A stretch of DNA of 64,000 bases from Escherichia phage tootiki. The stretch lies in sequence record MN850647.1; one strand, 5' to 3'. A program made the translations under genes and the position numbers. This document shows positions 12,714-40,884 of this stretch, in pieces. The stretch's first letter is position 1, and each line of letters begins with the position of its first letter. The notes beneath the pieces were generated by a model. The model saw nothing but the letters and a program-made list of their open reading frames with translations, did no database searches and had not been told where the DNA came from.

Positions 12714-14330
12714 TCAACGTCTAAGCCCCTCATATGGGTTTCCTCTCACTAAGTCTGTGTGAGCACCCATTGATGGTGGCTTGAATAATTTAACTTCGTT
12801 AAGACTGTTGAAAGCATCACTGGTAGCATCCACTTGGTCATCTTTAGTTTTACCATCACCACAAAAACCTTCAAGTTCTTGAAAGTAAGCTTCGTTCCAA
12901 CTGCCTCTCAAGACTTTTACAAGTCCAGCTTCAGAAGCAGCAGAAAATCCCGCAAAGCGGGTAACTTTATCTTTATTTGTTGGTTTAGCTCTTGCGCGAT
13001 AACCTTTCTCGGCAAGTTTCCTGATGAGGGATGTTGCATAGGATTTACCAGCAGCGCCTGGGTCTTGAGGGATAAAAATACCAGTTCGCTTACCGTCACT
13101 TTCAGCAGTCAAATTAATTTGTGTTTCGACTCCAGAGGGTCTATCTCTAAATCTTACTACATCAATGATATAATAGCAACCGTCTTTTTTAGATTTACCC
13201 ATCTTAACACCCGCTGTCCAGTCTGGGTTAGGGTTAATTTCAGATGGTAAAGTCGCTGCTAAGTCCCATGCTCTGACATCAAACACATCTTCTGGGAGTG
13301 AATCAACAATCTCACACCATTGTCTTTGCCAATAGTTTGAACCTTCTGCACGAGCCTTCCAGTTACCGAAACGAAGTCTTGCAACGTTTACAGGTGTGTT
13401 GTTTTCCAACTTACCACGATATTTAGGCTCTAAGAAGTCAAGAATTGGGTTATCATCAATCGTACCAGAGATGAAGGTGTATGTCTGAGGAATCTCAAGA
13501 GGGAACATTTCAAGAATCTTGTCTCTCTCCCAATCAGAAACCATCACACCATCATTCATAACATACCAACGAATACGACCACACTTCTCAGGGTCTGGGT
13601 AACCTTCTTCATCTAAGAATGGCTCTACCCAATCATAAATGAAGTGGTCTCTGTCTGGGTTCATAGAAATCTTCATGTATGAATCGCCTTCAGCACCAGA
13701 ACGTAGACGGGTCTGTAGGTATGAAATCTGTGAAGCAGAGAAGTGTGTACCTTCGTCAAAGTAGATAGCTGAGTATTCAATACCCTGATGACCTTCAGCG
13801 TGCTTTTCAAGTTCTAAGTAGGTGAACTTAATAGTTGCCCCAGAAGGGAACGTGATAGTCATCTTCTGCTCGTGAGGAACCCCACCAAACTTACCAAATA
13901 GTTTCTTTGCAGCAGGCCATAAACCACCTTGTAACTGTGTTGTATTTCGACGGAAATATACAGCATTATAGTTAGGGTCTTCAATAAACCTTAAAGAGTC
14001 CATTAACAATGCAGCAGTTTTACCAGCACCAGCAGCACCACCATAGAGTACCAAGTCAGCATTAGTGTTTAAAAAGACCTCTTGAGAACCCGGCTGAGGG
14101 GCTACATAGTTCTTATCAGTCATCAACTTAAAGATAAGGCGAACTTGGTCTGGTGTGTATCTTAATAAAGTCAGAATTTGAGTTGGAAGGAATTTAGAGG
14201 GGTCTTTACCGAATGATTTGATAATTTCTTTTACTTCATCAGAAAGCCCCAACTCTCCAGCTAGGACTTTCCTAACATCTTCCACTCGCTTCTGCTTAAC
14301 AGCATTTAAATCCATTAAGCGCCTCCGCAA
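12714..14330 (-). CDS. terminase large subunit
   Basis: 538 aa; Walker A LYGGAAGAGKT; C-terminal nuclease-like acidic residues. Confidence 0.9.
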   Translation of the reverse strand: MRRRLMDLNAVKQKRVEDVRKVLAGELGLSDEVKEIIKSFGKDPSKFLPTQILTLLRYTPDQVRLIFKLMTDKNYVAPQPGSQEVFLNTNADLVLYGGAAGAGKTAALLMDSLRFIEDPNYNAVYFRRNTTQLQGGLWPAAKKLFGKFGGVPHEQKMTITFPSGATIKFTYLELEKHAEGHQGIEYSAIYFDEGTHFSASQISYLQTRLRSGAEGDSYMKISMNPDRDHFIYDWVEPFLDEEGYPDPEKCGRIRWYVMNDGVMVSDWERDKILEMFPLEIPQTYTFISGTIDDNPILDFLEPKYRGKLENNTPVNVARLRFGNWKARAEGSNYWQRQWCEIVDSLPEDVFDVRAWDLAATLPSEINPNPDWTAGVKMGKSKKDGCYYIIDVVRFRDRPSGVETQINLTAESDGKRTGIFIPQDPGAAGKSYATSLIRKLAEKGYRARAKPTNKDKVTRFAGFSAASEAGLVKVLRGSWNEAYFQELEGFCGDGKTKDDQVDATSDAFNSLNEVKLFKPPSMGAHTDLVRGNPYEGLRR

Positions 14331-28643: not shown

Positions 28644-29192
28644 ATGGAAAAAGATAACTTAAAAGAAGTTGAAGGTAACTACCTAGTACTTGACTGGAAC
28701 GATGTTCGAGAAGCACTCTCCGAAGAAAATCTTGACTGGTTCGAACAAATTATCTTTGCAGTACGGCATAACAGAGAAGTTGAAAATGGTAAAGAGCCAC
28801 TTGAAGGAATCTTTGTAGAGAAGTCTTATCCGTTCTATGAAGATACTTTGCAGAAAGTTAAAATGTACTTTAAACAGAAGAACCGTAAAGTGGTCACTAT
28901 GGTATCTTTTGGTGGACAGAGTATGTCTGTGATGGAAGATATCAACCCTAAGAGACCGAGCAAAGGTGTCTGTATAAAAATCACAGGGCATGAAGAGTAT
29001 ATCTCAGTGGACGATTTTAGTGTGTTCTGTAATGGTTCTGCTGTCTTTAATGGGTTTCACTATGATATCCGAGTGTACCCAATCAAGGGAGATGATATCA
29101 TGATGCAGATATTCGATAACAACAATGGATTTACTCATTTTTATCAGACAACCAAGTCATCATTAAAAACAGTTCTGGAAACACTGATTTAA
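28644..29192 (+). CDS. hypothetical protein
   Basis: start moved to first ATG downstream of previous stop. Confidence 0.45.
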   Translation: MEKDNLKEVEGNYLVLDWNDVREALSEENLDWFEQIIFAVRHNREVENGKEPLEGIFVEKSYPFYEDTLQKVKMYFKQKNRKVVTMVSFGGQSMSVMEDINPKRPSKGVCIKITGHEEYISVDDFSVFCNGSAVFNGFHYDIRVYPIKGDDIMMQIFDNNNGFTHFYQTTKSSLKTVLETLI

Positions 29193-29200
29193 AATATCTT

Positions 29201-29232
29201 AAGAGCCTCCTTAATTGGGGGCTTTTTAATTT
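29201..29232 (+). terminator. intrinsic terminator at end of plus-strand island
   Basis: AGCCTCC-N7-GGGGGCT hairpin followed by TTTTTAATTTTT. Confidence 0.55.
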
Positions 29233-30348
29233 TTATAAAATTTTATCGGTTGTCCCAACCTCTGGGTCACCATCATATGTGAATAAAATATCTACCCTTC
29301 TTAACAACCTTCTTAATCTTACTCTCTATATAGTTATATAGTACTATATAGTATCTTAGTAACTATCTAGTGGTCTTAATAGCCCTCTGTATAGCCCTTC
29401 TAAATAGCCTTCTAAACACTCTTCTAACAAGCCCTCTTAACCACCTATACAATCACCTTAACCATCCCTCTACACCCTCTTAGAAGCTCCTATACACCTC
29501 TTAATCTCTAGGTTAGCTATGGCACTCTCTATAGGTGTTCACTAGGTAATACTAAGCCTCTATATAGACTGTTTTAACAAACTTAACAGGAATATCTTTA
29601 CAGACCTTACCTCACAAGGTCTAACACGGTACTAACAAGGTATCTTGTAAGCCTGTTTCTACCTGTATTTTTAAAAGACTGTATAGGTAATTATTCAGAA
29701 TTTTAAAATTTTTATAAAATAGGACTATCAAGTCATTTTTTAGGGTCTTTGAAGGAACTGAAAAATATCTGTCTAGGATGTATATCTGCTTGGTAGCCCT
29801 TAACAGCTCCCTTACAAGTACTTTGCAAAATTTTAAAATATCCTTAACAATCTCTTAACAGTTCTCACATCTTCTTAACAACTCTTCAAAGGTCTTAACA
29901 GATTCTTAACAGAACTAACAAGGCTGTAACAGTTTCTTAACAGTTGATACATAATCTTTACAGAGGCTTAACAGATGACTAACAAGAGCTAACAAGTTAA
30001 TTTTAAAGAGTTATTTTGTTAAGATTATTAACAAGTTTCTAACAAGTCTTTAATCTTTTTAACAAGCTATTAACATGGTCACTATCTCTTTCTTATCGTT
30101 CCCTTTCCTTTCTTAGTGATTCTTTAAACATACCTCTTAAAAGCTCTCTATAGCTCTTTATAAGCTCTTTTAAGTCTCTTCCTAGTAGTTACACCCCAAC
30201 TGTACAGATAGCTCTCTATAGGGCTTTACAGGAGCTTTTAAGGCTATGTCAAAGACTCTTACAAGGCTTTTACGTGGTCTTAACAGAGATTTAACAAGGG
30301 GCTAACAAGTTGCTAACAAGTGTCTTAAAAGCATAACTATGTAGGGAT

Positions 30349-30380
30349 TGTTAAGAAATTGTTAAGAAAATGTTAAGGGG
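30349..30380. repeat. three inverted-orientation iterons (TTGTTAAG)
   Basis: TTGTTAAGAAATTGTTAAGAAAATGTTAAGGG; reverse complement of the upstream TAACA iteron. Confidence 0.6.
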
Positions 30381-30393
30381 GCTAGTATTTACG

Positions 30394-30443
30394 TAACTTT
30401 TAAGCTACTTCAAAATAACTTTTAAGCTACTTCAAAATAACTT
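30394..30443. repeat. 23 bp perfect tandem direct repeat (2 copies)
   Basis: AACTTTTAAGCTACTTCAAAATA repeated back to back. Confidence 0.7.
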
Positions 30444-30767
30444 TATAGCCCCCTTCTTAGATATTCACAAGATAACTAATGAGATGATAAAGCTTACACC
30501 CTTATAAGATTCTTTTAAGGCTCTGGGAAGCTTTATAAAGGGCTTTTAATGGTGAGGTAATGCAATCCCTTAAGTTAGGTTAATAAGGTCGTTATAGGGC
30601 TTTATAGAGCGTTTAAATGGTTGCCCTTCCCTTTCGGGTTATGGGCTTATATTTAAGTTGATTTGATAAGGGGCTATAGAGTAAGCTATAGAGTTATTGT
30701 TTTTTAAGGTCTGATAAGATTCTGGAAAGGAAAGGGAAAGGGTTGTATAAGGGATTTGATAAGACGT

Positions 30768-30790
30768 AAAAAAGCCCCATATAAAGGGGC
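30768..30790 (-). terminator. intrinsic terminator after minus-strand small-gene block
   Basis: minus strand GCCCC-TTTATAT-GGGGC followed by TTTTTT. Confidence 0.55.
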
Positions 30791-30829
30791 TGTAAAGGTA
30801 TCTGGGGCTATTTAGCCCCGTTGCGGCGT

Positions 30830-31078
30830 TTAGTTAGTGCCTTCTTTGTCGTAGTACAAGGAGACAATTTTTTCACCCCAGTAGTGGTATGTATAACCCT
30901 CTTTGAGAACTTCCTCTTTTGTTTCTTTCCAGAATTCATCAGAGGGGTTGTAGTCACTGATGGTCTGGCTGATAAGGCCTTTCACCATTTCAAAGGCGTT
31001 ATCAGTACCTACAAGGTCAAATTTAACGTCCAGAGAGTAGAAGCCAAATTCGTTAACAGTTGCGCGGATAGTAGCCAT
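30830..31078 (-). CDS. hypothetical small protein
   Basis: 82 aa; preceded by type A cassette. Confidence 0.5.
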   Translation of the reverse strand: MATIRATVNEFGFYSLDVKFDLVGTDNAFEMVKGLISQTISDYNPSDEFWKETKEEVLKEGYTYHYWGEKIVSLYYDKEGTN

Positions 31079-31154
31079 TTTAGAATCTCCAGTTTAGGAA
31101 GTTGATTAAGGGTTTTGTTTAGCGGGGAAGGTCATTCCCTCCCCGTTGATTGAC

Positions 31155-31183
31155 AATTTACAGACTTTTGATTGTTTCGTCAA
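31155..31183 (-). promoter_or_regulatory. sigma70-like promoter within type A cassette
   Basis: minus strand TTGACG, 17 nt, TAAATT, followed by 5' hairpin and GGAGA RBS. Confidence 0.5.
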
Positions 31184-31688
31184 TATCTTTTTCAATATCT
31201 TTTAAAGTTTTTTCTAAGTTCTTGATATTGAAAGATAAACCTTCTCCCAGTGTCTTAGAGTAACCGCTAGGACGTGAGTCATATAGTTCAATTTCTTCTA
31301 CTTCGAAGAGGCTAACCAACTCACCGCTTACACTGTAAGCCATTGAAACAGTATTTACAGGGGCTTTATAAAACTTGTTTAAGGACTTGATAGAACGTTC
31401 ATAAGCCATTTTATAGCTATTTAAAAGGTTTTTAACGTGGCTGTGAACGTTTTTACACTCATCTAAATAAAGACCTAAAAACATCGGGAGAAGTTCCGCG
31501 ACAGCTTGCATAAAGTGAGAGACTACAACGGTTGCAACATTACGACGATGAACGTAATAAGCCCCGTTTTCTGATTTGGTAATGGTTGCAAAGTGTACCC
31601 CATTACAACGAAATTCATAGGTATCTTTAACAGGCTTAGACATTACATTATTTGAACGAATATAGTTGATAGCTTTGAACTTGTTCAT
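31158..31688 (-). CDS. hypothetical protein
   Basis: start moved to ATG (MNKFKAINY) preceded by conserved GGAGATTCTAAA leader. Confidence 0.5.
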   Translation of the reverse strand: MNKFKAINYIRSNNVMSKPVKDTYEFRCNGVHFATITKSENGAYYVHRRNVATVVVSHFMQAVAELLPMFLGLYLDECKNVHSHVKNLLNSYKMAYERSIKSLNKFYKAPVNTVSMAYSVSGELVSLFEVEEIELYDSRPSGYSKTLGEGLSFNIKNLEKTLKDIEKDIDETIKSL

Positions 31689-31910
31689 TTTAGAATCTCC
31701 TAGTTTAAGGACTTTACTTAGTAGGGAGGTTATTGCCTCCCCGTTGATGAGTAATTTACTTGTTTTGATATCTGATTGCAAGCAATTTTTTAAGTTTATC
31801 TATAAAGAATCTTTTAAGTTAATCCCTTTTAGATAAACCCCCTCGAACAAATCTACCAATGTCAAGGGGCGTTGTCAATACTTTTTTGAAAGTTTTTTGT
31901 AAGTTATTGA

Positions 31911-32252
31911 TTAACTGATGAATATTTTTTCAGGTTTTACATAGCTGATACGCTGACTTTTTAGCAGGTCATCCCAGATTAACGCGGCGATATGGGCATA
32001 ACCGGATTCACGTAAAAGCTTCATTGTTTTACTTCTCGTTTCAAAACGGCTTGCGTAGTACTCACTATTTAAAACCGTTTTATTCCCTTCGTTATCTACA
32101 TGGATAATCTGCATCACTTGAAAGGGGCTTGTGTCCTCGCCTTTGTTCCACTGTTCAAAGTATTTTAGGCACTGCATAGGTGACATCTTATCACTTACTT
32201 GAGTTGACCAAGATGAATTTTCTTTATCGGTAATTACGGTTACATAAGCCAT
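31911..32252 (-). CDS. hypothetical protein
   Basis: 113 aa; conserved leader upstream. Confidence 0.5.
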   Translation of the reverse strand: MAYVTVITDKENSSWSTQVSDKMSPMQCLKYFEQWNKGEDTSPFQVMQIIHVDNEGNKTVLNSEYYASRFETRSKTMKLLRESGYAHIAALIWDDLLKSQRISYVKPEKIFIS

Positions 32253-32317
32253 TTTTGAATCTCCTAGTTTAAGGATTGTACTTAGTGGGGAAGGTCATTC
32301 CCTCCCCGTTGATTGAC

Positions 32318-32346
32318 AATTTACAGATTTTTATCAGGCTTGTCTA
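32318..32346 (-). promoter_or_regulatory. sigma70-like promoter within type A cassette
   Basis: minus strand TAGACA, 17 nt, TAAATT. Confidence 0.45.
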
Positions 32347-32577
32347 GTCTTTTTCAATGATAATTTCATACTGACCATCTACGCTGTCAAAATAGATACC
32401 GTCTTCATCTTCTGTCTTAAAGTAACATTGTATATCATCACTAGCGGGATAGTCTTGTCTTGCTATCTGACAGACCTGAACAGCATTTTCTTTACTTCCT
32501 GTAAACTCCTCAAGCCCTTTAAAATCACATGAATGACCATTACAAATAGAAAGGATAAGATAAACGGTTGTAAGCAT
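32344..32577 (-). CDS. hypothetical small secreted or membrane protein
   Basis: 77 aa with hydrophobic N-terminus. Confidence 0.45.
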   Translation of the reverse strand: MLTTVYLILSICNGHSCDFKGLEEFTGSKENAVQVCQIARQDYPASDDIQCYFKTEDEDGIYFDSVDGQYEIIIEKD

Positions 32578-32643
32578 GATTTAAGCCTCTTAAAAGCCCC
32601 TGTGAGGGGCTAATCAGTGTTTATAAGGTGATTGCATAGGTTT

Positions 32644-33186
32644 TTAGAAAAAGCTCTTTAAATCTCTCTCTGTGATGTTTCCCGCTAGTGTATCCATGAT
32701 GTCACAAAAAACCTGAATACTATCCGACTGTTGAATACTTTTAGCAAGAAGCTCCAGAGACTCATCAAGATAATTTAAATTTGGGTTATCCAATGAAGGA
32801 AGACAAAAAGGCGAAAACATCGCATTAAACTCGGTTACGTAAACCTTTTTAATCCAATTTAAATCGAAGTATTCTGTAAAACTTGCTACGCCAGACATAT
32901 TATCACAAGAATAATCATCATTCAGGTCATCCTCTGGGATATCAAGTTCTAAGATAACAATATTTTGGGTTTTCATCTGGAAAGCGGCCGTAATAGTGGC
33001 ATTACCTAACGCTTGCTGGATGCCTTCGGCTGTTATCTCTTCCTCATCGTCGCCATAGATTTTATTTTCTGGATACACGTAAAAATTGCCGTCCATGTCC
33101 GAACAATTCCATGCACCTGATGGCTTGTCACCGTTATTAATCAGGTTGAGGAAATTTTCTTGAGTAGTACCGTGAAAGCATTTCAT
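32644..33186 (-). CDS. hypothetical acidic protein
   Basis: 180 aa; type B cassette upstream. Confidence 0.5.
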   Translation of the reverse strand: MKCFHGTTQENFLNLINNGDKPSGAWNCSDMDGNFYVYPENKIYGDDEEEITAEGIQQALGNATITAAFQMKTQNIVILELDIPEDDLNDDYSCDNMSGVASFTEYFDLNWIKKVYVTEFNAMFSPFCLPSLDNPNLNYLDESLELLAKSIQQSDSIQVFCDIMDTLAGNITERDLKSFF

Positions 33187-33200
33187 TTTTGAATCTCCAG

Positions 33201-33275
33201 TTTAGGATTTAGTGGTAAAGCTCTTTATCTGGGGCTTACTTTATCGAACTATAAGCCCCTTGTAAAGTACTTTAT
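33201..33275. repeat. type B cassette copy 1 (about 75 bp, near-identical to 34004-34078 and 36060-36134)
   Basis: TTAGGATTTAGTGGTAAAGCTCTTTATCTGGGGCTTACTTTATCGAACTATAAGCCCCTTGTAAAGTACTTTAT. Confidence 0.7.
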
Positions 33276-33475
33276 TTGTTATTTTTTACTACTTTTAAAA
33301 CCGCACGATAGCCTAAGCAATAGGAATCACCGAAGAGCGACCGACCCATGAAGGAGTCCTCTGTAATATCTTTCGCCGTGACGGTTTTTTCTACGCCGTG
33401 AAAGAGAACTACATCACCGACTTTAATATCTTTGATGTGTGTAGTTTCAATGGTTAAACCGTTAATAATAGCCAT
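33272..33475 (-). CDS. hypothetical small protein
   Basis: 67 aa beginning MAII. Confidence 0.45.
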   Translation of the reverse strand: MAIINGLTIETTHIKDIKVGDVVLFHGVEKTVTAKDITEDSFMGRSLFGDSYCLGYRAVLKVVKNNK

Positions 33476-33538
33476 TTTTGAATCTCCAGTTTAGGACTTT
33501 ATTTAGTGGGGAAGGTCATTCCCGCCCCGTTGATGTGT

Positions 33539-33567
33539 AATTTAATCTATCTGAAAACCAATGTCAA
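33539..33567 (-). promoter_or_regulatory. sigma70-like promoter with upstream A15 tract
   Basis: minus strand A15 then TTGACA, 17 nt, TAAATT, then GGGGCGGGAATGACCTTCCCC hairpin and RBS. Confidence 0.55.
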
Positions 33568-33583
33568 CAATTTTTTTTTTTTT

Positions 33584-33988
33584 TTAGAGTTCTGCATAAA
33601 TTGCATCACAGATACCACGAAAATCATGATTTGTCAAATTACGTTGTAACCAAGTGGCGAAAAAGTCAGCGATTGCAAAGTTAGCGTCATACTCGACAGA
33701 TAGCCACACTTTAACAGCAAACCGAAACATTTTCAAATCAAGCTCTTTATTCATTACCTTAGATTTGCCTAACATGTCGGACATTTCATATTGTGCACCG
33801 TCTAGCGTGATACCTGCTGCAACGTCAGCCAATGAGTTTTTTACGTTTTCAACGTCTAAGATAACGCTTTGAATCTTCCCAATAATGTTGTGCAATGTTT
33901 CGTCCGGTGCTGATGACGTAATAACATTAATCCGGTTAACGGTCAAACGTGCTTTTAAGATTGATAACTCGCGATTATTAATAGCCAT
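33584..33988 (-). CDS. hypothetical protein
   Basis: track start is a TTG inside the conserved leader; ATG start (MAINN) follows GGAGA. Confidence 0.5.
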   Translation of the reverse strand: MAINNRELSILKARLTVNRINVITSSAPDETLHNIIGKIQSVILDVENVKNSLADVAAGITLDGAQYEMSDMLGKSKVMNKELDLKMFRFAVKVWLSVEYDANFAIADFFATWLQRNLTNHDFRGICDAIYAEL

Positions 33989-34003
33989 TTTTAAGTTCTC
34001 CAA

Positions 34004-34078
34004 TTTAGGATTTAGTGGTAAAGCTCTTTATCTGGGGCTTACTTTATCGAACTATAAGCCCCTTGTAAAGTACTTTAT
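34004..34078. repeat. type B cassette copy 2
   Basis: near-identical to 33201-33275. Confidence 0.7.
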
Positions 34079-34347
34079 ACTAAATGCAGCTTTTTACCTT
34101 TTACTATGATGTAACTCGATGCGCTATTGCTTTGCACATCCTGATAAATTCTGCGCAAACGGCCTTCGTAGTATACTTTCCAACTGGTTGGAATCTTTTT
34201 CCCGTATCCTGTAGCAGTTTTTTGTAGTCCTGCAAGTTGCCAATCTAAGATATGTTGTTCGGCTTGTAAATCCTCGAAGTGCATTACACCGTTCACATAG
34301 TGACGAAGGGTTATGTTTAAGGTGCGACCGTTGTTAGTAGTATACAT
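34075..34347 (-). CDS. hypothetical protein
   Basis: 90 aa. Confidence 0.45.
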   Translation of the reverse strand: MYTTNNGRTLNITLRHYVNGVMHFEDLQAEQHILDWQLAGLQKTATGYGKKIPTSWKVYYEGRLRRIYQDVQSNSASSYIIVKGKKLHLV

Positions 34348-34434
34348 TTTGAATCTCCTAGTTTAAGGACTTTGTTTAGTGGGGAGGTCATTACCTCCCG
34401 TTGATTAGTAATTTACTTGTTTTAAAAACCAAAA

Positions 34435-34767
34435 TCAAGAGAAATTTTTTCGTTTGCTCAATTCTTGAACAATTACAGCGTAGTAGTCTTTTAAGTCACT
34501 GACATTTAAAGCATTTATCAGAGAATTATAATCATCGACTAACTGAAAATCATCTTTGAAAATGTCGCTGATTTGATAAGTTTTTGATTGAAATCTGAAG
34601 CTCATTTCTAGCCGCTTTATTTGCTCATCACTGAGGCGCCCTAGAAAGCTTTCTACAAGGTTATTGCTAACCTGCTGTGTGATTGCCTTATTTGCTAGAT
34701 TATAGGCTTTATATGCCTTATATAGCGCGAAAATGGCAATGATTGCAGTGATACCAGTCATTAACAT
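34435..34767 (-). CDS. hypothetical membrane protein
   Basis: 110 aa with N-terminal TM helix. Confidence 0.45.
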   Translation of the reverse strand: MLMTGITAIIAIFALYKAYKAYNLANKAITQQVSNNLVESFLGRLSDEQIKRLEMSFRFQSKTYQISDIFKDDFQLVDDYNSLINALNVSDLKDYYAVIVQELSKRKNFS

Positions 34768-35057
34768 GGTGTTTCCTCTTTACGTGATACTTTGCCATTT
34801 ACAGTTATCTCATAAGAATCTAGTAAGTCACTTTTAGACTTTACTGGACTTTTAAAAGTATCATCATAAATATTTACTTGCAATACAGGTTTTTTATACT
34901 CCCTGCAACTATTCCATAAGCAAATCACTACGCGACGGCCTTTTATTTTGCCGTGCAACCATTCCATAACATCATGATTATTTCTTGATGTCTCGATAAA
35001 ATCAATTTTGTTGAGTAATTTGCTCAGATTTTCACGCACTTGATTTGATAATTTCAT
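34761..35057 (-). CDS. hypothetical protein
   Basis: 98 aa. Confidence 0.45.
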   Translation of the reverse strand: MKLSNQVRENLSKLLNKIDFIETSRNNHDVMEWLHGKIKGRRVVICLWNSCREYKKPVLQVNIYDDTFKSPVKSKSDLLDSYEITVNGKVSRKEETPC

Positions 35058-35149
35058 TTTAGAATCTCCTAGTTTAAGGGCTTTATTTGATAAATCTCTT
35101 TATCTGGGGCTATCTTACCAGCTTGATAACCCCGTGTAAAGAAATCTAT

Positions 35150-35662
35150 TTAGTTCTTAAAGATATTCATCACTGAGTCTTTCAACGATTCCAAACGTTC
35201 TAATACTTCAGTTTCTGCGTCTGAATTGTTCACCTCTTCTTTTAGTCTATCTTCTAAATCCTCACCGTCACTATAGCACCAATCGAAAGCGTAACCAATA
35301 TAAAAGCTGTCTAAAACCGTTTTACCGTTTGCATCTACAACTTTCGCGGCAATGTTATACTCTGAAGCTTCTAAATCTCTTTCTAGTTCTTCCTGTAAGC
35401 TTGCGTAAGCCTCTTTTGATGGATTTTCCCGGCCTTGTTTTGCATAGTCACTAGAAAGCTGCTTAAGGCTGTAATGTAAAGGGATTGCATATTTAAAATC
35501 ATTACGCTGACAGTTAGGATTTTTAATCGTCACACCACCTTGATGGTCATCTGTAAACTTCCAATTATCAAGATTATGGCTTGCTTCAAAGCAATTTACC
35601 GCTTCATAGATAATGGTGAATTTTTCTTTTACAACTTCAAAAGTAGCGTCTACAGTTTTCAT
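35150..35662 (-). CDS. hypothetical acidic protein
   Basis: 170 aa. Confidence 0.5.
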   Translation of the reverse strand: MKTVDATFEVVKEKFTIIYEAVNCFEASHNLDNWKFTDDHQGGVTIKNPNCQRNDFKYAIPLHYSLKQLSSDYAKQGRENPSKEAYASLQEELERDLEASEYNIAAKVVDANGKTVLDSFYIGYAFDWCYSDGEDLEDRLKEEVNNSDAETEVLERLESLKDSVMNIFKN

Positions 35663-35747
35663 TTTTGAATCTCCAATTTAGGATTTAGTGGTAAAGCTCT
35701 TTATCTGGGGCTTAAGATATCAACTTTTAAACCCCATGTAAAGTACT

Positions 35748-36041
35748 TTATTTGTTAATTTTCAGCTTTGCATAACTTCTCATTGTACGAATGGTGGATG
35801 TTAATGCTACGCGTCTAATGTATGCCTTTTTCGTGTATACATTTGTCTTCCCGATAGTGTTTACACATGTAAAAAGGTTTATCGGTGAATTTTTTAACTT
35901 CAACTGTTTATCAGCCTTCACGCCCCACCTTACAGCAGATTGTTTTCCGTTGTCAACCACTTTCCCGCATAACTTTTTAGCCATAACGCGAGCGTCATCA
36001 CGAGTTTTTGCAGCAATTACAACGTTTTTGATAATAGCCAT
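35748..36041 (-). CDS. hypothetical protein
   Basis: start moved from leader TTG to ATG (MAIIK). Confidence 0.45.
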   Translation of the reverse strand: MAIIKNVVIAAKTRDDARVMAKKLCGKVVDNGKQSAVRWGVKADKQLKLKNSPINLFTCVNTIGKTNVYTKKAYIRRVALTSTIRTMRSYAKLKINK

Positions 36042-36059
36042 TTTTAAGTTCTCCAATTT

Positions 36060-36134
36060 AGGATTTAGTGGTAAAGCTCTTTATCTGGGGCTTACTTTAT
36101 CGAACTATAAGCCCCTTGTAAAGTACTTTATTTA
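36060..36134. repeat. type B cassette copy 3
   Basis: near-identical to 33201-33275. Confidence 0.7.
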
Positions 36135-36334
36135 TCGTAGTAGTAAATTGCTGTCTGTCTTGTAAACTTCTTAGTATTTCTTGTCAGATAGCAATTAGAA
36201 TTAATAGCCGTTTCTACATAGTTGCAATAGTCAGCTTCTGATATTCTAGACCATACGCCACAGATTTGCATGTAAAAACGTTTTACCTTTGTGTGAATGT
36301 TAGTTGTAACCATCAATTCGCGACTGTACAGCAT
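36128..36334 (-). CDS. hypothetical Cys-containing small protein
   Basis: 68 aa; conserved leader upstream. Confidence 0.45.
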   Translation of the reverse strand: MLYSRELMVTTNIHTKVKRFYMQICGVWSRISEADYCNYVETAINSNCYLTRNTKKFTRQTAIYYYDK

Positions 36335-36584
36335 TTTTAGATTCTCCAGTTTAGGAAGTGGGCTTGATTGCCCGTCTGATGCAGATATTAGATAACTATA
36401 CTCAAAGAGTCAATAGGAATTTTAAAAATATTTTTTGCAAAAATTGTAATGAAACGGGTGCGCGCGACTACCACAAAACAGAACTACAATCAAGAATTAT
36501 TTTTCAATCCGCTACAAATTTTTCTGTTGACTTTTATTTCCAGATGTGGTAGCCTTGTGAGAAATGGCGACATCCCCACCTGTA

Positions 36585-36842: not shown

Positions 36843-37628
36843 TTAGTTCTTTGCGTCTAAGAAGGTAACTTCTGGTGAAGAGAAAACTGTCTCGATATCC
36901 TCATCAGTTCTTGCATAGATATAAGTATCTGCATCACTGCCAAATGTTACTGCAATCCTGTGATTGCTCTTCGACAGGTGGGTAACTAGAGCGTTACTCA
37001 GAGACATCTTTTCAACCGGAGGGTTACTTTGATGTATCTTACCTTTTCTTCGTCTGAAGAGGGTAACTGCGTTATCTGTGAACACTGCTACACCTGCAAA
37101 GTATTCTGGTTCACAGTAGTTCTTCCAACCTGAGCGTAACTTGTGGTACATCTCTCCTTCGTAGACATAAAGATACACATCTACACTCTTCATCACCTGA
37201 TTAATGATAACTGTGACGGCTTGAGGGTCTAGCCCACCGATACCTGCACCAATCATAGGTAAACCAACCTTCTTCAACTGGTTGACTTCACAGTATCTGT
37301 TAAGCTGCTTCAAAGATGACTCTAAAGCACTGTATCGGGCATCTTTACCAGTCTTAAGCTGAGTGTAAAGGTTAGCTATACGGCCTTGTTCTAAACGTGC
37401 TACAGAGAAATTACCCAGTAAATTTTCACAGGGTTTGTGACCTATACCACCTGCATAGAGGTAAACTTCTGTATCGGTCTCATATGCTTTTGGGTAAAGT
37501 TTAGAAATCTTGTCAGCGATACCTACACCCATTAAATTCATACAGTTGCAACCGTGACCAATAATATCAAACTTACCTTTATCAAATGCTGAGAAGATAT
37601 CCCCATTGATGATTTTTACAATACCCAT
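36843..37628 (-). CDS. macro-domain-like protein (ADP-ribose binding or hydrolase candidate)
   Basis: 261 aa; NGDIF, DIIGHGCNCMNLMGVGIA and LPMIGAGIGG resemble macro-domain GDIT, NAAN..GGGV and ISTG.YG motifs. Confidence 0.45.
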   Translation of the reverse strand: MGIVKIINGDIFSAFDKGKFDIIGHGCNCMNLMGVGIADKISKLYPKAYETDTEVYLYAGGIGHKPCENLLGNFSVARLEQGRIANLYTQLKTGKDARYSALESSLKQLNRYCEVNQLKKVGLPMIGAGIGGLDPQAVTVIINQVMKSVDVYLYVYEGEMYHKLRSGWKNYCEPEYFAGVAVFTDNAVTLFRRRKGKIHQSNPPVEKMSLSNALVTHLSKSNHRIAVTFGSDADTYIYARTDEDIETVFSSPEVTFLDAKN

Positions 37629-39175: not shown

Positions 39176-39988
39176 TTATTCTTGACTGTAATAGTTGACA
39201 AGTGAAATCGCTTGATTCATCAACAACTTATCAGCCTGTGCTCCGCGACCAGCTTGTAATGCCAGTTGGTATACCTCTGTAACATATTTGTTAGACATAC
39301 CTTCACAGTAGTCATTATAGTCTTCCCAAAAGGAAAATGCAGCATCACCATATAGGCGTAGTGTAATTAACATTGCTGCACGAATCCCAGAAGAATATTT
39401 CCGTTTTGCGTTTACTACACCTTTAAGCTGTACTTCAAGAGAATCAATTTGTTCCAGCTCATTTTTAAAGTCATTAAGATATTTAACTGTTTCAGTGTTA
39501 GAGACCTGTTGTACACCGTAGTATGCAGCAACATATTTAATAGCAGTTGCCCAAGATGCTTTCATCAGTTCTGACTCTGGGTTGAAAGAAATCATCTTCA
39601 TATTTCCGTAATAAACTTCTGAAGGTTTTTCTCTTGCTAACTCAGAGTCAAAATGAGTGTACAAATCTGTGACATCCAATATGGAGTTCACATGGTATAT
39701 AACTGCAATCAAGTTTTCTGGTCGTGTCAGGTTACCAACTTTCCATGCCTCTCGACGTGAGTGCCCATCAATGATGAACAGTGAACTGCCGAACTTAGCT
39801 ACATGGACTACTGTTTGGTCTGGTGATACGTCACCATTAAGGTGTTTACTTTTCAGACGCTTAAGTGTATTTCGTTGACGAGGGTTTTCTTTGTAACGTT
39901 TTTCATTAAGAAAATCCTCGACACTGATAATCTTAGTGTGAATTTTAACAACCTTGCCATTCAGTGCTACATTGATGCTGTTTGCCAT
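39176..39988 (-). CDS. ParB-like nuclease domain protein
   Basis: 270 aa; FIIDGHSRREAW resembles ParB/Srx DGxxR box. Confidence 0.45.
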   Translation of the reverse strand: MANSINVALNGKVVKIHTKIISVEDFLNEKRYKENPRQRNTLKRLKSKHLNGDVSPDQTVVHVAKFGSSLFIIDGHSRREAWKVGNLTRPENLIAVIYHVNSILDVTDLYTHFDSELAREKPSEVYYGNMKMISFNPESELMKASWATAIKYVAAYYGVQQVSNTETVKYLNDFKNELEQIDSLEVQLKGVVNAKRKYSSGIRAAMLITLRLYGDAAFSFWEDYNDYCEGMSNKYVTEVYQLALQAGRGAQADKLLMNQAISLVNYYSQE

Positions 39989-39999
39989 AACTTGATACC

Positions 40000-40884
40000 T
40001 TAGTTGTGAATAATTACTTCGTTAATATCTTTGCTTCTCTGTGCATGTATTGTGTATGAATGACTAACCTCTGTCAAGTTAAAATTTTCAGGAATTAGGT
40101 TTACCCATCCATCCCACTGAGAGTTTGACATCAAAACTTTAGAGCCTAACTCCCCCCAAGAAATCATATCTTCGCATAATTTTACAGACATCTCAATGTC
40201 AAACTTTGCACCATATTTCTGGTTGGTGTTGATATACGGGGGGTCACAGTAAATAACTGTGCCTTCTCCATGTTTTATGTCAACCCTGTCATAAGGTTCA
40301 CTGCTAAGTATTACCCTCTCATCGGTGATAAAACTGTAGAACTCAGACAGTGACTTCTTAGTTTTTGTGAAGAAAATCTCTTCTTCCAGCAAATACCCGC
40401 AAGGTGTTGCATAGTGACCTTTCATCTCTTTAGTAGTCTGCCATACACCACCAAAACTTAGTTTTTGAAGGAAAAACTGTCTGGCATAGTATCTGTAGTC
40501 ATATGCTCCCTCTTCACCAAGCAAAAGAAGTTCCTCTCTTACACTGTAATACATTTTATAGCGTAGACGGTTATGACGCTGACCTTTCACGGCATACTCT
40601 TCCTGCATAGGTAAGGCTAAGTACCTTTTTGACAAGTACTCAAATTCTTCCATGAAGTTTTCATAGTCATCTCTGAAAGTTGTGTAAAGACCTATAATAT
40701 GTTTATTTATCTCATTAATAAACACTTTTGCCTCTGGATATCTGTTATAAGCCCAGATAGCTACTGAACCACCACCTGAAAACAGGTCATAGAAGTTTTT
40801 ACAGTTGTCTGGAAAGACACCTAAACGCTCATATTCTTTCAGTATTCTTGTTTTACCACCAAGATACTTAAACATTGGTTTCAT
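40000..40884 (-). CDS. dam: DNA N6-adenine methyltransferase (Dam-like)
   Basis: FKYLGGK, LFSGGGSV (AdoMet motif I) and DPPY (motif IV). Confidence 0.75.
   Translation of the reverse strand: MKPMFKYLGGKTRILKEYERLGVFPDNCKNFYDLFSGGGSVAIWAYNRYPEAKVFINEINKHIIGLYTTFRDDYENFMEEFEYLSKRYLALPMQEEYAVKGQRHNRLRYKMYYSVREELLLLGEEGAYDYRYYARQFFLQKLSFGGVWQTTKEMKGHYATPCGYLLEEEIFFTKTKKSLSEFYSFITDERVILSSEPYDRVDIKHGEGTVIYCDPPYINTNQKYGAKFDIEMSVKLCEDMISWGELGSKVLMSNSQWDGWVNLIPENFNLTEVSHSYTIHAQRSKDINEVIIHN

Follow-up and report, generated by a model that had tools for sequence, protein, structure and literature searches.

A gene-free, iteron-rich region of a Felix O1-like phage very probably holds the ends of its chromosome

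The 1.5-kb region at 29233–30767 of the window (the whole stretch of 64,000 nucleotides analysed here) is dense in short repeated words, and it very probably is the region of the chromosome ends, holding a short direct terminal repeat (DTR) at 29792–30382. Judged by sequence matches, the source of the window is a Felix O1-like myovirus (Felixounavirus): the region has matches at 85 to 96% identity in more than 200 Felixounavirus records, with the closest relatives at 94 to 96%. The DTR itself is already known in phages of this kind. For the iteron grammar of the DTR, we found no published description in the literature searched, where the DTR papers found give the repeat length only. We consider the identity of the region together with an explanation through end formation, taken as one account, to be somewhat probable; that the TAACA iterons in particular serve end formation or packaging seems quite possible, though we hold it with less confidence. 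The region and its borders contain the following features:

29201–29226, plus strand: terminator-like hairpin ending the plus-strand gene block (10-pair stem, then a run of T); ASO1A and Moogle have an annotated terminator at the corresponding site.
29233–29650, plus strand: left non-repeated flank of C/T-rich degenerate 10- to 12-bp units (CTATATAG, CTTAATAG, CTAACAAG and similar), all with top-strand polarity; 6 forward TAACA cores.
29651–29791, no strand: AT-rich spacer, 141 bp with 27% G+C; its end, immediately before the left DTR boundary, is the invariant TGTATATCTGCTT.
29792–30382, plus strand: putative short DTR, 591 bp, single copy in the window; boundaries ±2 nt, projected from the termini of relatives.
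29794–29805, plus strand: left boundary motif TAGCCCTTAACA, inward-facing; of 16 aligned Felixounavirus, Mooglevirus and Suspvirus loci, 15 have it unchanged and one has TAAACA.
29843–30075, plus strand: main forward array of 15 TAACA cores (CTTAACAG / CTAACAAG) with gaps of 9–11, 20, 31 and 39 bp.
30279–30320, plus strand: four forward iterons, each exactly 11 bp from the next (TAACA at 30281, 30292, 30303 and 30314).
30349–30377, minus strand: three reverse iterons (TGTTAAGAAAn), 11 bp apart and adjoining the right boundary; their number varies from 2 to 5 among relatives, in 11-bp steps.
30371–30384, minus strand: right boundary motif TGTTAAGGGGGCTA, the reverse complement of TAGCCCCCTTAACA, inward-facing; nearly invariant in 16 relatives, three of which have TGTAA for TGTTA.
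30383–30767, minus strand: right non-repeated flank of 10- to 11-bp periodic units (CTTTTAAG, GGGCTTTATAG and similar) with polarity opposite to the left flank and no TAACA.
30394–30444, plus strand: perfect 22-bp tandem repeat (2.3 copies, 100% match) belonging to an array of variable copy number directly beyond the DTR.
30773–30791, minus strand: terminator-like hairpin ending the minus-strand gene block; a terminator is annotated at the equivalent site in ASO1A and Moogle.

The ends of four close relatives (Pr103Blw, UAB_69, H12 and EcSzw_1) fall at 29790–29793 and 30382–30384, suggesting that the core of the repeat-rich region is the DTR. The 581-bp DTR of Pr103Blw, determined with PhageTerm and present in two identical copies, projects to 29792–30382, and the annotated 618-bp DTR feature of UAB_69 projects to 29790–30384. 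In window positions, the EcSzw_1 record starts at 29793 and ends at 29792, the H12 record begins at 30382|30383, and the record of the more distant Erwinia phage Roscha1 starts no more than 1 nt from the right DTR boundary. The termini of both Pr103Blw and H12 are PhageTerm-derived in the literature, and at 30382|30383 they lie within the right boundary motif. Annotated boundaries vary by no more than 2 to 3 nt among records, and the length of 591 bp lies inside the range of 567 to 638 bp seen among relatives. For the close relative UAB_Phi87, from the laboratory that deposited UAB_69, a 608-bp DTR was determined by Bal31 digestion and run-off sequencing (Bardina et al.); PhageTerm gave a 613-bp DTR for Ro111lw and suggested short DTRs in Erwinia Kolesnikviruses. 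The Felix O1 genome paper inferred short terminal repeats from genome size alone, and the repeats listed there are others. The DTRs of UAB_Phi87 (608 bp), Ro111lw (613 bp), Pr103Blw (581 bp) and UAB_69 (618 bp) are homologous at 85 to 96% identity, occupy the same syntenic position and have the same boundaries, and we see no essential difference between the DTR proposed here and those of Felix O1-like relatives. A packaging or terminal-repeat boundary had been among the options of an earlier sequence-only reading of this DNA, and it gains support from the relatives' termini, which project to 29792 and 30382 within 2 nt, and from the experiment on UAB_Phi87. The ends of IMG/VR loci were dropped as terminus evidence, being truncation points off the boundaries.

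As far as these projections go, the single DTR of the window is in the state found at a concatemer junction, with the repeat standing at both ends of virion DNA, and the convergent gene blocks by the same token form the outermost parts of the linear genome, with transcription in each running toward the nearby end. The physical chromosome ends would then lie inside the window, and the proper point at which to open the genome would be 30382/30383 or 29791/29792. In Bas63, ASO1A, Moogle, SUSP2 and Sf17 the region has the same gene blocks on either side, and the terminators that had been proposed for both convergent transcription units are borne out by the two hairpins listed above. Between the stop of the plus-strand block at 29192 and an 82-aa minus-strand ORF at 30830–31078, the longest ORFs are 31 to 37 aa, and relatives differ from each other in this gene-free region by indels of 11, 22 and 24 bp, which are incompatible with coding. 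The earlier claim that 29233–30767 has no credible ORF is therefore upheld, and short hypothetical CDSs annotated inside it in some GenBank records are almost certainly spurious. An Rfam scan at a permissive threshold returned as its sole match Phe_leader, located on a terminator and below threshold (26 bits versus 55); neither a conserved ORF nor a known ncRNA spanning the region was found. The ORFs flanking it match no Pfam domain and only PHROGs without assigned function. The plus strand had been described as G-poor throughout, which holds as far as about 30380 (left flank G 11%, C 25%) but not in the right flank, where the composition is reversed (G 21%, C 13%).

TAACA cores are far more frequent than composition predicts: 26 forward and 4 reverse copies compare with 3.0±1.7 in dinucleotide shuffles of the region and with 2.6 expected from the genome background (Poisson p about 1e-17), and their orientation is biased (p = 6e-5). 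The iterons are asymmetric 8-mers that had been reported to recur about 30 times in one orientation; this is true of the TAACA core with its strong bias, but as exact 8-mers CTTAACAG and CTAACAAG are each found 8 times (16 together), and besides the three copies correctly noted in opposite orientation (TGTTAAG at 30349, 30360 and 30371, 11 bp apart) there is a fourth reverse core at 30017. The cores are concentrated in the DTR, which holds 24 of the 30 (20 forward, 4 reverse) in 591 bp, with 6 in the left flank and 0 in the right. A more degenerate unit, CT-N4-AG, is found 60 times over the 1.5 kb compared to 11±3 times in shuffles.

The spacing of these elements follows the helical repeat of DNA. 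Mapping of k-mers, as the earlier reading had proposed, revealed a strong 10- to 11-bp periodicity next to the TAACA enrichment: the autocorrelation of bases shows peaks at lag 11 (z = 10.9) and lags 21–22 (z = 6–7), and the TAACA cores are phased at 10.25–10.5 bp (R = 0.6–0.67). Since the spacing corresponds to one helical turn or multiples of it, all iterons would face the same side of the double helix. Starting from the boundary core at 29801, the first gaps are 44, 11, 20, 20, 11, 9, 11 and 11 bp, and this series is mirrored in Erwinia phage Roscha1, where it is kept at about 61% identity. Helical phasing does not predict a static bend here, since the intrinsic curvature predicted by a wedge model (using the parameters of Bolshoy and Trifonov) is ordinary, with a mean of 0.950 in the region versus 0.948 window-wide.

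Comparison of related genomes, likewise proposed earlier, showed the region to be kept in all 12 relatives tested and to be conserved at least as well as the neighboring genes. TAACA cores stand out above the spacers, with 96% conservation at core positions compared to 84% elsewhere (permutation p < 2e-4), a difference that anchoring of the aligner on repeated words may partly inflate. Between 17 and 26 of 26 TAACA sites are retained across three genera, and iteron copy number among relatives shifts in 11-bp steps. The repeats could in principle be filler without sequence-specific function, made by slippage in a junction that has no genes and needs nothing but its two cut sites, and both the variable copy number of 11-bp and 22-bp units among relatives and the poor conservation of the 22-bp array would fit with this. 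However, filler should not show cores conserved above their spacers, retention of most sites across three genera, a spacing pattern that persists in Erwinia phages at about 61% identity, or a strict orientation bias, and we regard this explanation as highly improbable.

The motif TAGCCC(CC)TTAACA stands at both DTR boundaries, inverted at one relative to the other, and is almost invariant in 16 aligned relatives. TAACA iterons extend across the DTR from one boundary to the other and are part of both boundary motifs, and the two cuts are offset by 4 nt relative to the symmetric motif. The presence of one motif, inverted, at both boundaries suggests that a single nuclease could recognize both. 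A large terminase subunit (TerL) is encoded at 12714–14330 (Terminase_6N/6C, phrog_979), and the TerL proteins of UAB_Phi87 and Felix O1 were placed in the DTR cluster by Bardina et al. In the mechanism that we propose, terminase would recognize each boundary and make its two cuts on opposite strands, at a distance of about 590 bp, and copying across the interval between the cuts would yield a full repeat for each packaged genome, as in the T7 model. The iterons would dock a sequence-specific DNA-binding protein, a putative recognition factor resembling a small terminase, that marks the junction and positions the cuts, while the degenerate CT-N4-AG units in both flanks, pointing toward the repeat, may extend the same platform. 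In a more tentative version that we judge to be rather doubtful, the whole 1.5-kb platform of about 60 phased CT-N4-AG units, the 30 TAACA iterons among them, would dock either a putative recognition protein of a new kind or the large terminase itself. Such a factor might polymerize on one face of the DNA, or wrap along it, and thereby measure out both ends of the repeat.

By analogy to the CCTAAAG array of T7, the iteron array is most likely a protein-binding array that guides the formation of ends by terminase. The T7 concatemer junction has 13 CCTAAAG and 0 reversed copies in 659 bp, within and around the 160-bp repeat and with a period of about 13 bp. The likeness is one of architecture only: an exact short terminal repeat is filled and flanked by a single-orientation motif in non-coding DNA beside terminase-dependent cut sites. 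There is no sequence homology between the two, and T7 is a podovirus whereas the phage studied here is a myovirus. The period of about 13 bp in T7 differs from the helical phasing of 10 to 11 bp found here, and the array of the window is larger (30 cores and 60 CT-N4-AG units in 1.5 kb), with a flip of polarity at one boundary and with inverted boundary motifs. T7 also has a known small terminase, gp18, whereas none is recognizable here. We know of no established function of the short repeats of T7. Their arrays are reportedly those that Dunn and Studier named SRL and SRR in 1983. Outside T7 and T3, the marking and duplication of exact terminal repeats are poorly understood. If the proposal is true, a spacing conserved from phages of Escherichia and Salmonella to those of Erwinia would offer a tractable model of the way in which phages define exact terminal repeats.

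The presence of a short motif in several copies beside a terminase cut site is shared with the P1 pac hexamers, the R sites of lambda cosB and SPP1 pacL/pacR, where such copies flank the cut site and bind the recognition subunit. Those systems have 3 to 7 motifs in 100 to 200 bp and a known binder, and they serve cos or headful packaging rather than exact terminal repeats. The conserved, helically phased iterons and the symmetric boundary motifs are concrete cis elements to mutate and a bait for the recognition protein. Felix O1-like phages are widely used in Salmonella typing, biocontrol and therapy, and they are now genetically tractable via Bas63. The available part of the PhageMaP essentiality study of Bas63, with 2 to 4 guide RNAs per gene, makes no mention of the gene-free region.

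An origin of replication had also been suggested for the region. In this reading, the iterons and the adjacent AT-rich block would form a primary or secondary origin in or next to the DTR, with an initiator binding the iterons and melting the block. The region shares with iteron-type origins of plasmids and phages its direct repeats in one orientation, their helical-turn spacing and an AT-rich neighbor block (the 141 bp of 27% G+C at 29651–29791), and its strong conservation would suit an origin as well. The T7 promoters phiOL and phiOR are annotated directly beside the terminal repeat and are associated with replication origins, which indicates that packaging and origin functions can coexist at such a junction. 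However, the region contains a single DnaA box and the window no excess of them, and, unlike at iteron-type origins, there is neither a cluster of DnaA boxes nor a recognizable initiator gene beside the region. Promoter-like sites are not in excess (9 sigma-70-like sites versus 6.8±2.4 expected), and most of them are TTAACA read as a −35 element. The GC-skew analysis that had been proposed as a check gave no origin signal, since the skew tracks gene orientation only. An array that coincides exactly with the mapped terminal repeat, fills it edge to edge and takes part in the boundary motifs fits better with end formation, and we consider the origin unlikely.

The iterons inside the DTR imply that every virion chromosome bears iterons at both ends, and this would also suit a role at the ends of incoming or resident DNA, where a bound protein might protect from exonuclease, pause DNA entry as in T5 or pair repeats into concatemers. 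The terminal repeat of T5 likewise contains a large untranslated region, tied to injection arrest, that is conserved among relatives and rich in repeats, inverted repeats and palindromes. No Chi site is found near the ends (0 in the region, without enrichment), and according to the PhageMaP paper the relative Bas63 lacks a RecBCD inhibitor. Yet the T5 injection stop signal is defined by 8 conserved DnaA boxes in a terminal repeat of about 10 kb, compared to one box and a 0.6-kb repeat here. We found no published two-step injection for the Felix O1-like family in the literature searched, the predicted intrinsic curvature is ordinary, and the symmetric boundary motifs indicate cutting rather than entry. 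We thus consider such a role at DNA ends improbable.

With the proposed protein-binding array that guides end formation, the question of its binder arises. That the repeats are sites for a DNA-binding protein, as the sequence-only reading had suggested, is plausible, since the motif cores are helically phased and better conserved, but the binder that it named, a ParB-like protein encoded at 39176–39988, is rejected because the gene is an accessory one, present in about 15 Felix O1-like records (13 close, 2 distant) compared to at least 209 that keep the iteron region. A centromere-like site bound by this protein is thereby refuted as a general explanation, and we give it next to no probability. 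The sole resemblance of the 270-aa protein to ParB/Srx folds is a DGHSRRE motif noticed in the translation; Pfam, PHROGs functions and PDB sequences lend the label no support, a single-sequence structure model was unusable (pLDDT 38), and the asymmetric 8-mers are unlike palindromic parS-like sites. Among the ORFs neighboring the terminase gene, no small terminase or iteron binder was recognized, and none is listed in the Pharokka and BASEL annotations. Three candidates were set aside: a 66-aa ORF upstream of TerL, considered as small terminase, is acidic (pI 4.4) and has close homologues only; a DUF7338 protein looks membrane-embedded; and a DUF7217 protein is acidic.

Finally, the flanks of the DTR differ in polarity and in conservation. 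In the left flank, with conservation of 0.6–0.98, words greatly outnumber their complements (CTCT 13:0, AGCC 5:0, CTTAA 7:0), and the right flank shows the opposite preference (GGCT 5 versus AGCC 1, TTAAG 6 versus CTTAA 1; lag-11 z = 4.8). The segment at 29779–29905, comprising the last ~13 bp of the AT-rich spacer and the first ~110 bp of the DTR, is the sole part that blastn detects in Erwinia Kolesnikvirus genomes. The tandem repeat just outside the right boundary had been described as a perfect 23-bp duplication at 30394–30443; it is indeed perfect, but its unit is 22 bp, with 2.3 copies extending to 30444. Copy number and sequence of this array vary widely in relatives (conservation 0.57–0.68), with a large expansion in L038.

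The sequence-only reading had listed a packaging or terminal-repeat boundary among its options for the gene-free stretch of tootiki at 29233-30767 (the iteron region, named for its TAACA-core 8-mers), and this option is borne out by the ends of related phages, which project to 29790-29793 and 30382-30384 of the window:

29792-30382: Pr103Blw, two identical copies of an annotated 581-bp "short direct terminal repeat", one at each end of the record
29790-30384: UAB_69, 618-bp feature annotated "DTR"
29793 / 29792: EcSzw_1, left boundary, as record start and record end
30382 / 30383: H12, right boundary, as record start
about 30382: Roscha1 (an Erwinia phage), record start no more than 1 nt from the homologous right boundary

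Published repeats include 608 bp for UAB_Phi87, by Bal31 digestion and run-off sequencing (PMC4837284), and, by PhageTerm, 581 bp for Pr103Blw (PMC8303462) and 613 bp for Ro111lw (PMC6454146); for H12 (PMC11737134) and Erwinia Kolesnikviruses (PMC11984208), too, PhageTerm results indicated direct terminal repeats. In the original Felix O1 paper, short terminal repeats were deduced from genome size only, and the repeats of the iteron region go unmentioned (PMC3185647). Since mapped or annotated ends of relatives and the literature agree, 29792-30382 (591 bp) is shown by homology to be the phage's direct terminal repeat (DTR) and the iteron region to be its chromosome-end region, with ends made at both boundaries. 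The terminal repeat of the genus is already known and annotated in GenBank. The window contains one copy of the repeat, as would a circularised assembly or the junction of a concatemer.

As proposed from the sequence, the region is without a credible ORF—the longest found by ORF search between 29192 and 30830 have 31-37 aa—and is flanked by terminator-like hairpins:

29192, plus strand: stop codon of the last plus-strand gene, left limit of the gap
29201-29226, plus strand: terminator-like hairpin, facing inward
30791-30773, minus strand: terminator-like hairpin, facing inward
30830-31078, minus strand: 82-aa ORF, right limit of the gap

The region matches more than 200 genomes of Felixounavirus (Felix O1-like myoviruses; matched hosts are Escherichia, Salmonella, Shigella and Citrobacter) at 85-96% identity and the sister genera Mooglevirus and Suspvirus at about 74-80%, and all matching genomes have the same 1.6-1.7 kb gene-free gap between the same convergent blocks. 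In several GenBank records, this non-coding terminal region carries annotated short hypothetical CDSs (UAB_69 gp027 and gp028, H12 CDS0001 and CDS0002, Sl26 and others; relatives' loci L004 and L048), which are very unlikely to be real genes because 11-bp and 22-bp indels occur there among relatives. One 'Staphylococcus'-labelled record also matches the iteron region and is probably mislabelled or contaminated, with Felix O1-like sequence.

K-mer counts and spacing confirm that the region is rich in repeats (counts for 29233-30767, expectation from dinucleotide shuffles of the same region):

TAACA, forward: 26 observed, shuffles 3.0±1.7 (maximum 9)
TGTTA (TAACA reverse): 4 observed, shuffles 2.1±1.4
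CTTAACAG: 8 observed, shuffles about 0.1
CTAACAAG: 8 observed, shuffles about 0.1
CT-N4-AG frame: 60 observed, shuffles 11±3

For an equal length of the rest of the window, only 2.6 forward TAACA are expected, and CT-N4-AG, common to both 8-mers, reaches 39 per kb in the region versus 9.6 per kb elsewhere in the window. An earlier count of about 30 copies holds for the 5-bp TAACA core but not for the 8-mers, with eight of each. In base autocorrelation, there are peaks at lag 11 (z = 10.9), lags 21-22 and lags 31-34, and TAACA core-to-core distances are phased at 10.25-10.5 bp. The perfect tandem duplication is present at 30394-30444 (2.3 perfect copies), but with a unit of 22 bp rather than 23 bp, and the plus strand is G-poor only up to the right flank, where composition is reversed.

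Of the 30 cores, 24 fall within the 591-bp repeat and the other six in the left flank, which leaves the right flank free of them. Counted from the left boundary, the first core starts 9 nt in, and the last reverse core stops 7 nt short of the right boundary. DNA read inward from either physical end opens with (TA)GCCC(CC)TTAACA, so that the boundaries form an inverted pair, and both boundary motifs are near-invariant among 16 aligned relatives, as is TGTATATCTGCTT just outside the left boundary. Motifs keep strict top-strand polarity from the left flank through most of the repeat (CTCT 13:0, AGCC 5:0) and are inverted in its final 35 bp and in the right flank, which starts directly with the variable-number 22-bp array. 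This array is strongly expanded in one relative (locus L038), and copy number varies both to the left (11-bp steps) and to the right (22-bp steps) of the right DTR boundary (L038, L042, L043), a variation that could be used as a strain-typing marker. Loci L015, L021 and L022 of relatives carry a 24-bp insertion, TTGATTCGGTAGAATCTACCTCAT, just left of 29777, outside the DTR and 15 bp away from its left boundary; within the insertion is a palindrome, GGTAGA/TCTACC, that echoes the boundary sequence GGTAGCC.

Comparison with related genomes points to constraint: 12 of 12 relatives tested retain the region, with conservation at least that of mosaic neighbour genes, and TAACA core positions are 96% conserved, other positions 84% (p < 2e-4 by permutation; some of the difference may stem from the aligner being anchored by repeated words). 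Across three genera, 17-26 of the 26 forward TAACA are retained site for site, while the reverse units (TGTTAAGAAAn, 30349-30377) number 2-5 among relatives in 11-bp steps and thus preserve helical phase. The segment equivalent to the repeat measures 567-638 bp in relatives and contains 18-23 forward and 3-6 reverse cores. In Erwinia phages, blastn detects only the left boundary and about 110 bp of the repeat start; at about 61% identity, Roscha1 cores are spaced 44, 11, 20, 20, 20, 9, 11, 11 from the boundary versus 44, 11, 20, 20, 11, 9, 11, 11 in the window, and core identity is 76% compared to 56% in spacers. This conservation pattern contradicts a reading of the repeats as pure slippage filler.

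The concatemer junction of phage T7 (NC_001604 1-420 and 39539-39937; L046 and L047) has the same architecture but unrelated sequence: by our computation, its 160-bp repeat and the sequence to either side contain 13 CCTAAAG, all in one orientation, and the period is about 13 bp. Compared to T7, the tootiki array is larger, helically phased and bipolar; taken together, the two regions suggest that exact-DTR junctions may generally carry motif arrays of a single orientation. We found no description of the iteron grammar, inverted boundary motifs or cross-genus spacing conservation in the accessible literature; these are useful leads, unsurprising in kind given T7. An origin of replication, compatible with a packaging role, is possible in that promoters phiOL and phiOR, which are associated with T7 replication origins, are annotated beside the T7 repeat, but nothing specific in its favour was found in the tootiki region. 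The region might also act at DNA entry or in end protection; T5 likewise has a conserved untranslated repeat region in its terminal repeat, tied to injection arrest, but defined by eight DnaA boxes, a set absent from the tootiki region.

For the formation of chromosome ends, the same motif at both boundaries in opposite orientation suggests that one nuclease would cut opposite strands at the two repeat edges, with the interval then copied, as in the classical model of terminal repeat duplication in the T7/T3 packaging literature. The terminase large subunit is encoded at 12714-14330. Iterons one helical turn apart would sit on one DNA face, as expected for a multimeric recognition protein that is wrapped by DNA or polymerises along it; such wrapping is a proposed mode of binding for small terminases that form rings. 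A small terminase is neither annotated nor detectable, and the ORFs next to the terminase gene do not look suited to bind iterons. The previously proposed binder, a ParB-like protein at 39176-39988, is rejected, decisively by gene distribution (13 close and 2 distant relatives versus at least 209 keeping the region); it is also without HMM or PDB-sequence support, and its structure model is unusable.

Side observations concern three minus-strand genes of the window, the rejected ParB-like candidate among them:

36843-37628, minus strand: 261-aa protein with Macro domain (PF01661, E = 3e-7)
39176-39988, minus strand: 270-aa protein with DGHSRRE motif, in only about 15 phage records
40000-40884, minus strand: D12-class (Dam-like) N6-adenine methyltransferase (PF02086, E = 1.6e-23)

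The latter two form an accessory two-gene module (39176-40884), and a Dam-like enzyme is odd in a GATC-free genome: there are 0 GATC sites in 1-64000 (shuffles 182±13, Markov estimate about 204) and none throughout the 87.1-kb genome of relative Bas63, which suggests that GATC-directed host functions or restriction are avoided to an extreme degree. Many 6-bp palindromes are also missing from the window. Copies of the 270-aa protein with 99.6% identity appear in the records of Campylobacter phages A126 and A132 (database matches H116 and H117; MG065668 and MG065664), which are probably mislabelled or contaminated with Felix O1-like sequence. The minus-strand run at 30830-36400 holds about a dozen small ORFs without known function, read toward the chromosome end and in many cases separated by intergenic spacers of some 65-110 bp, a layout resembling an early or host-takeover gene cluster; in ASO1A, three spacers near the start of this run have annotated terminators and one of the three also a promoter. 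The Macro domain protein may act on ADP-ribose, and the Bas63 gene matched to it by position and length alone is annotated as 'putative phosphatase'.
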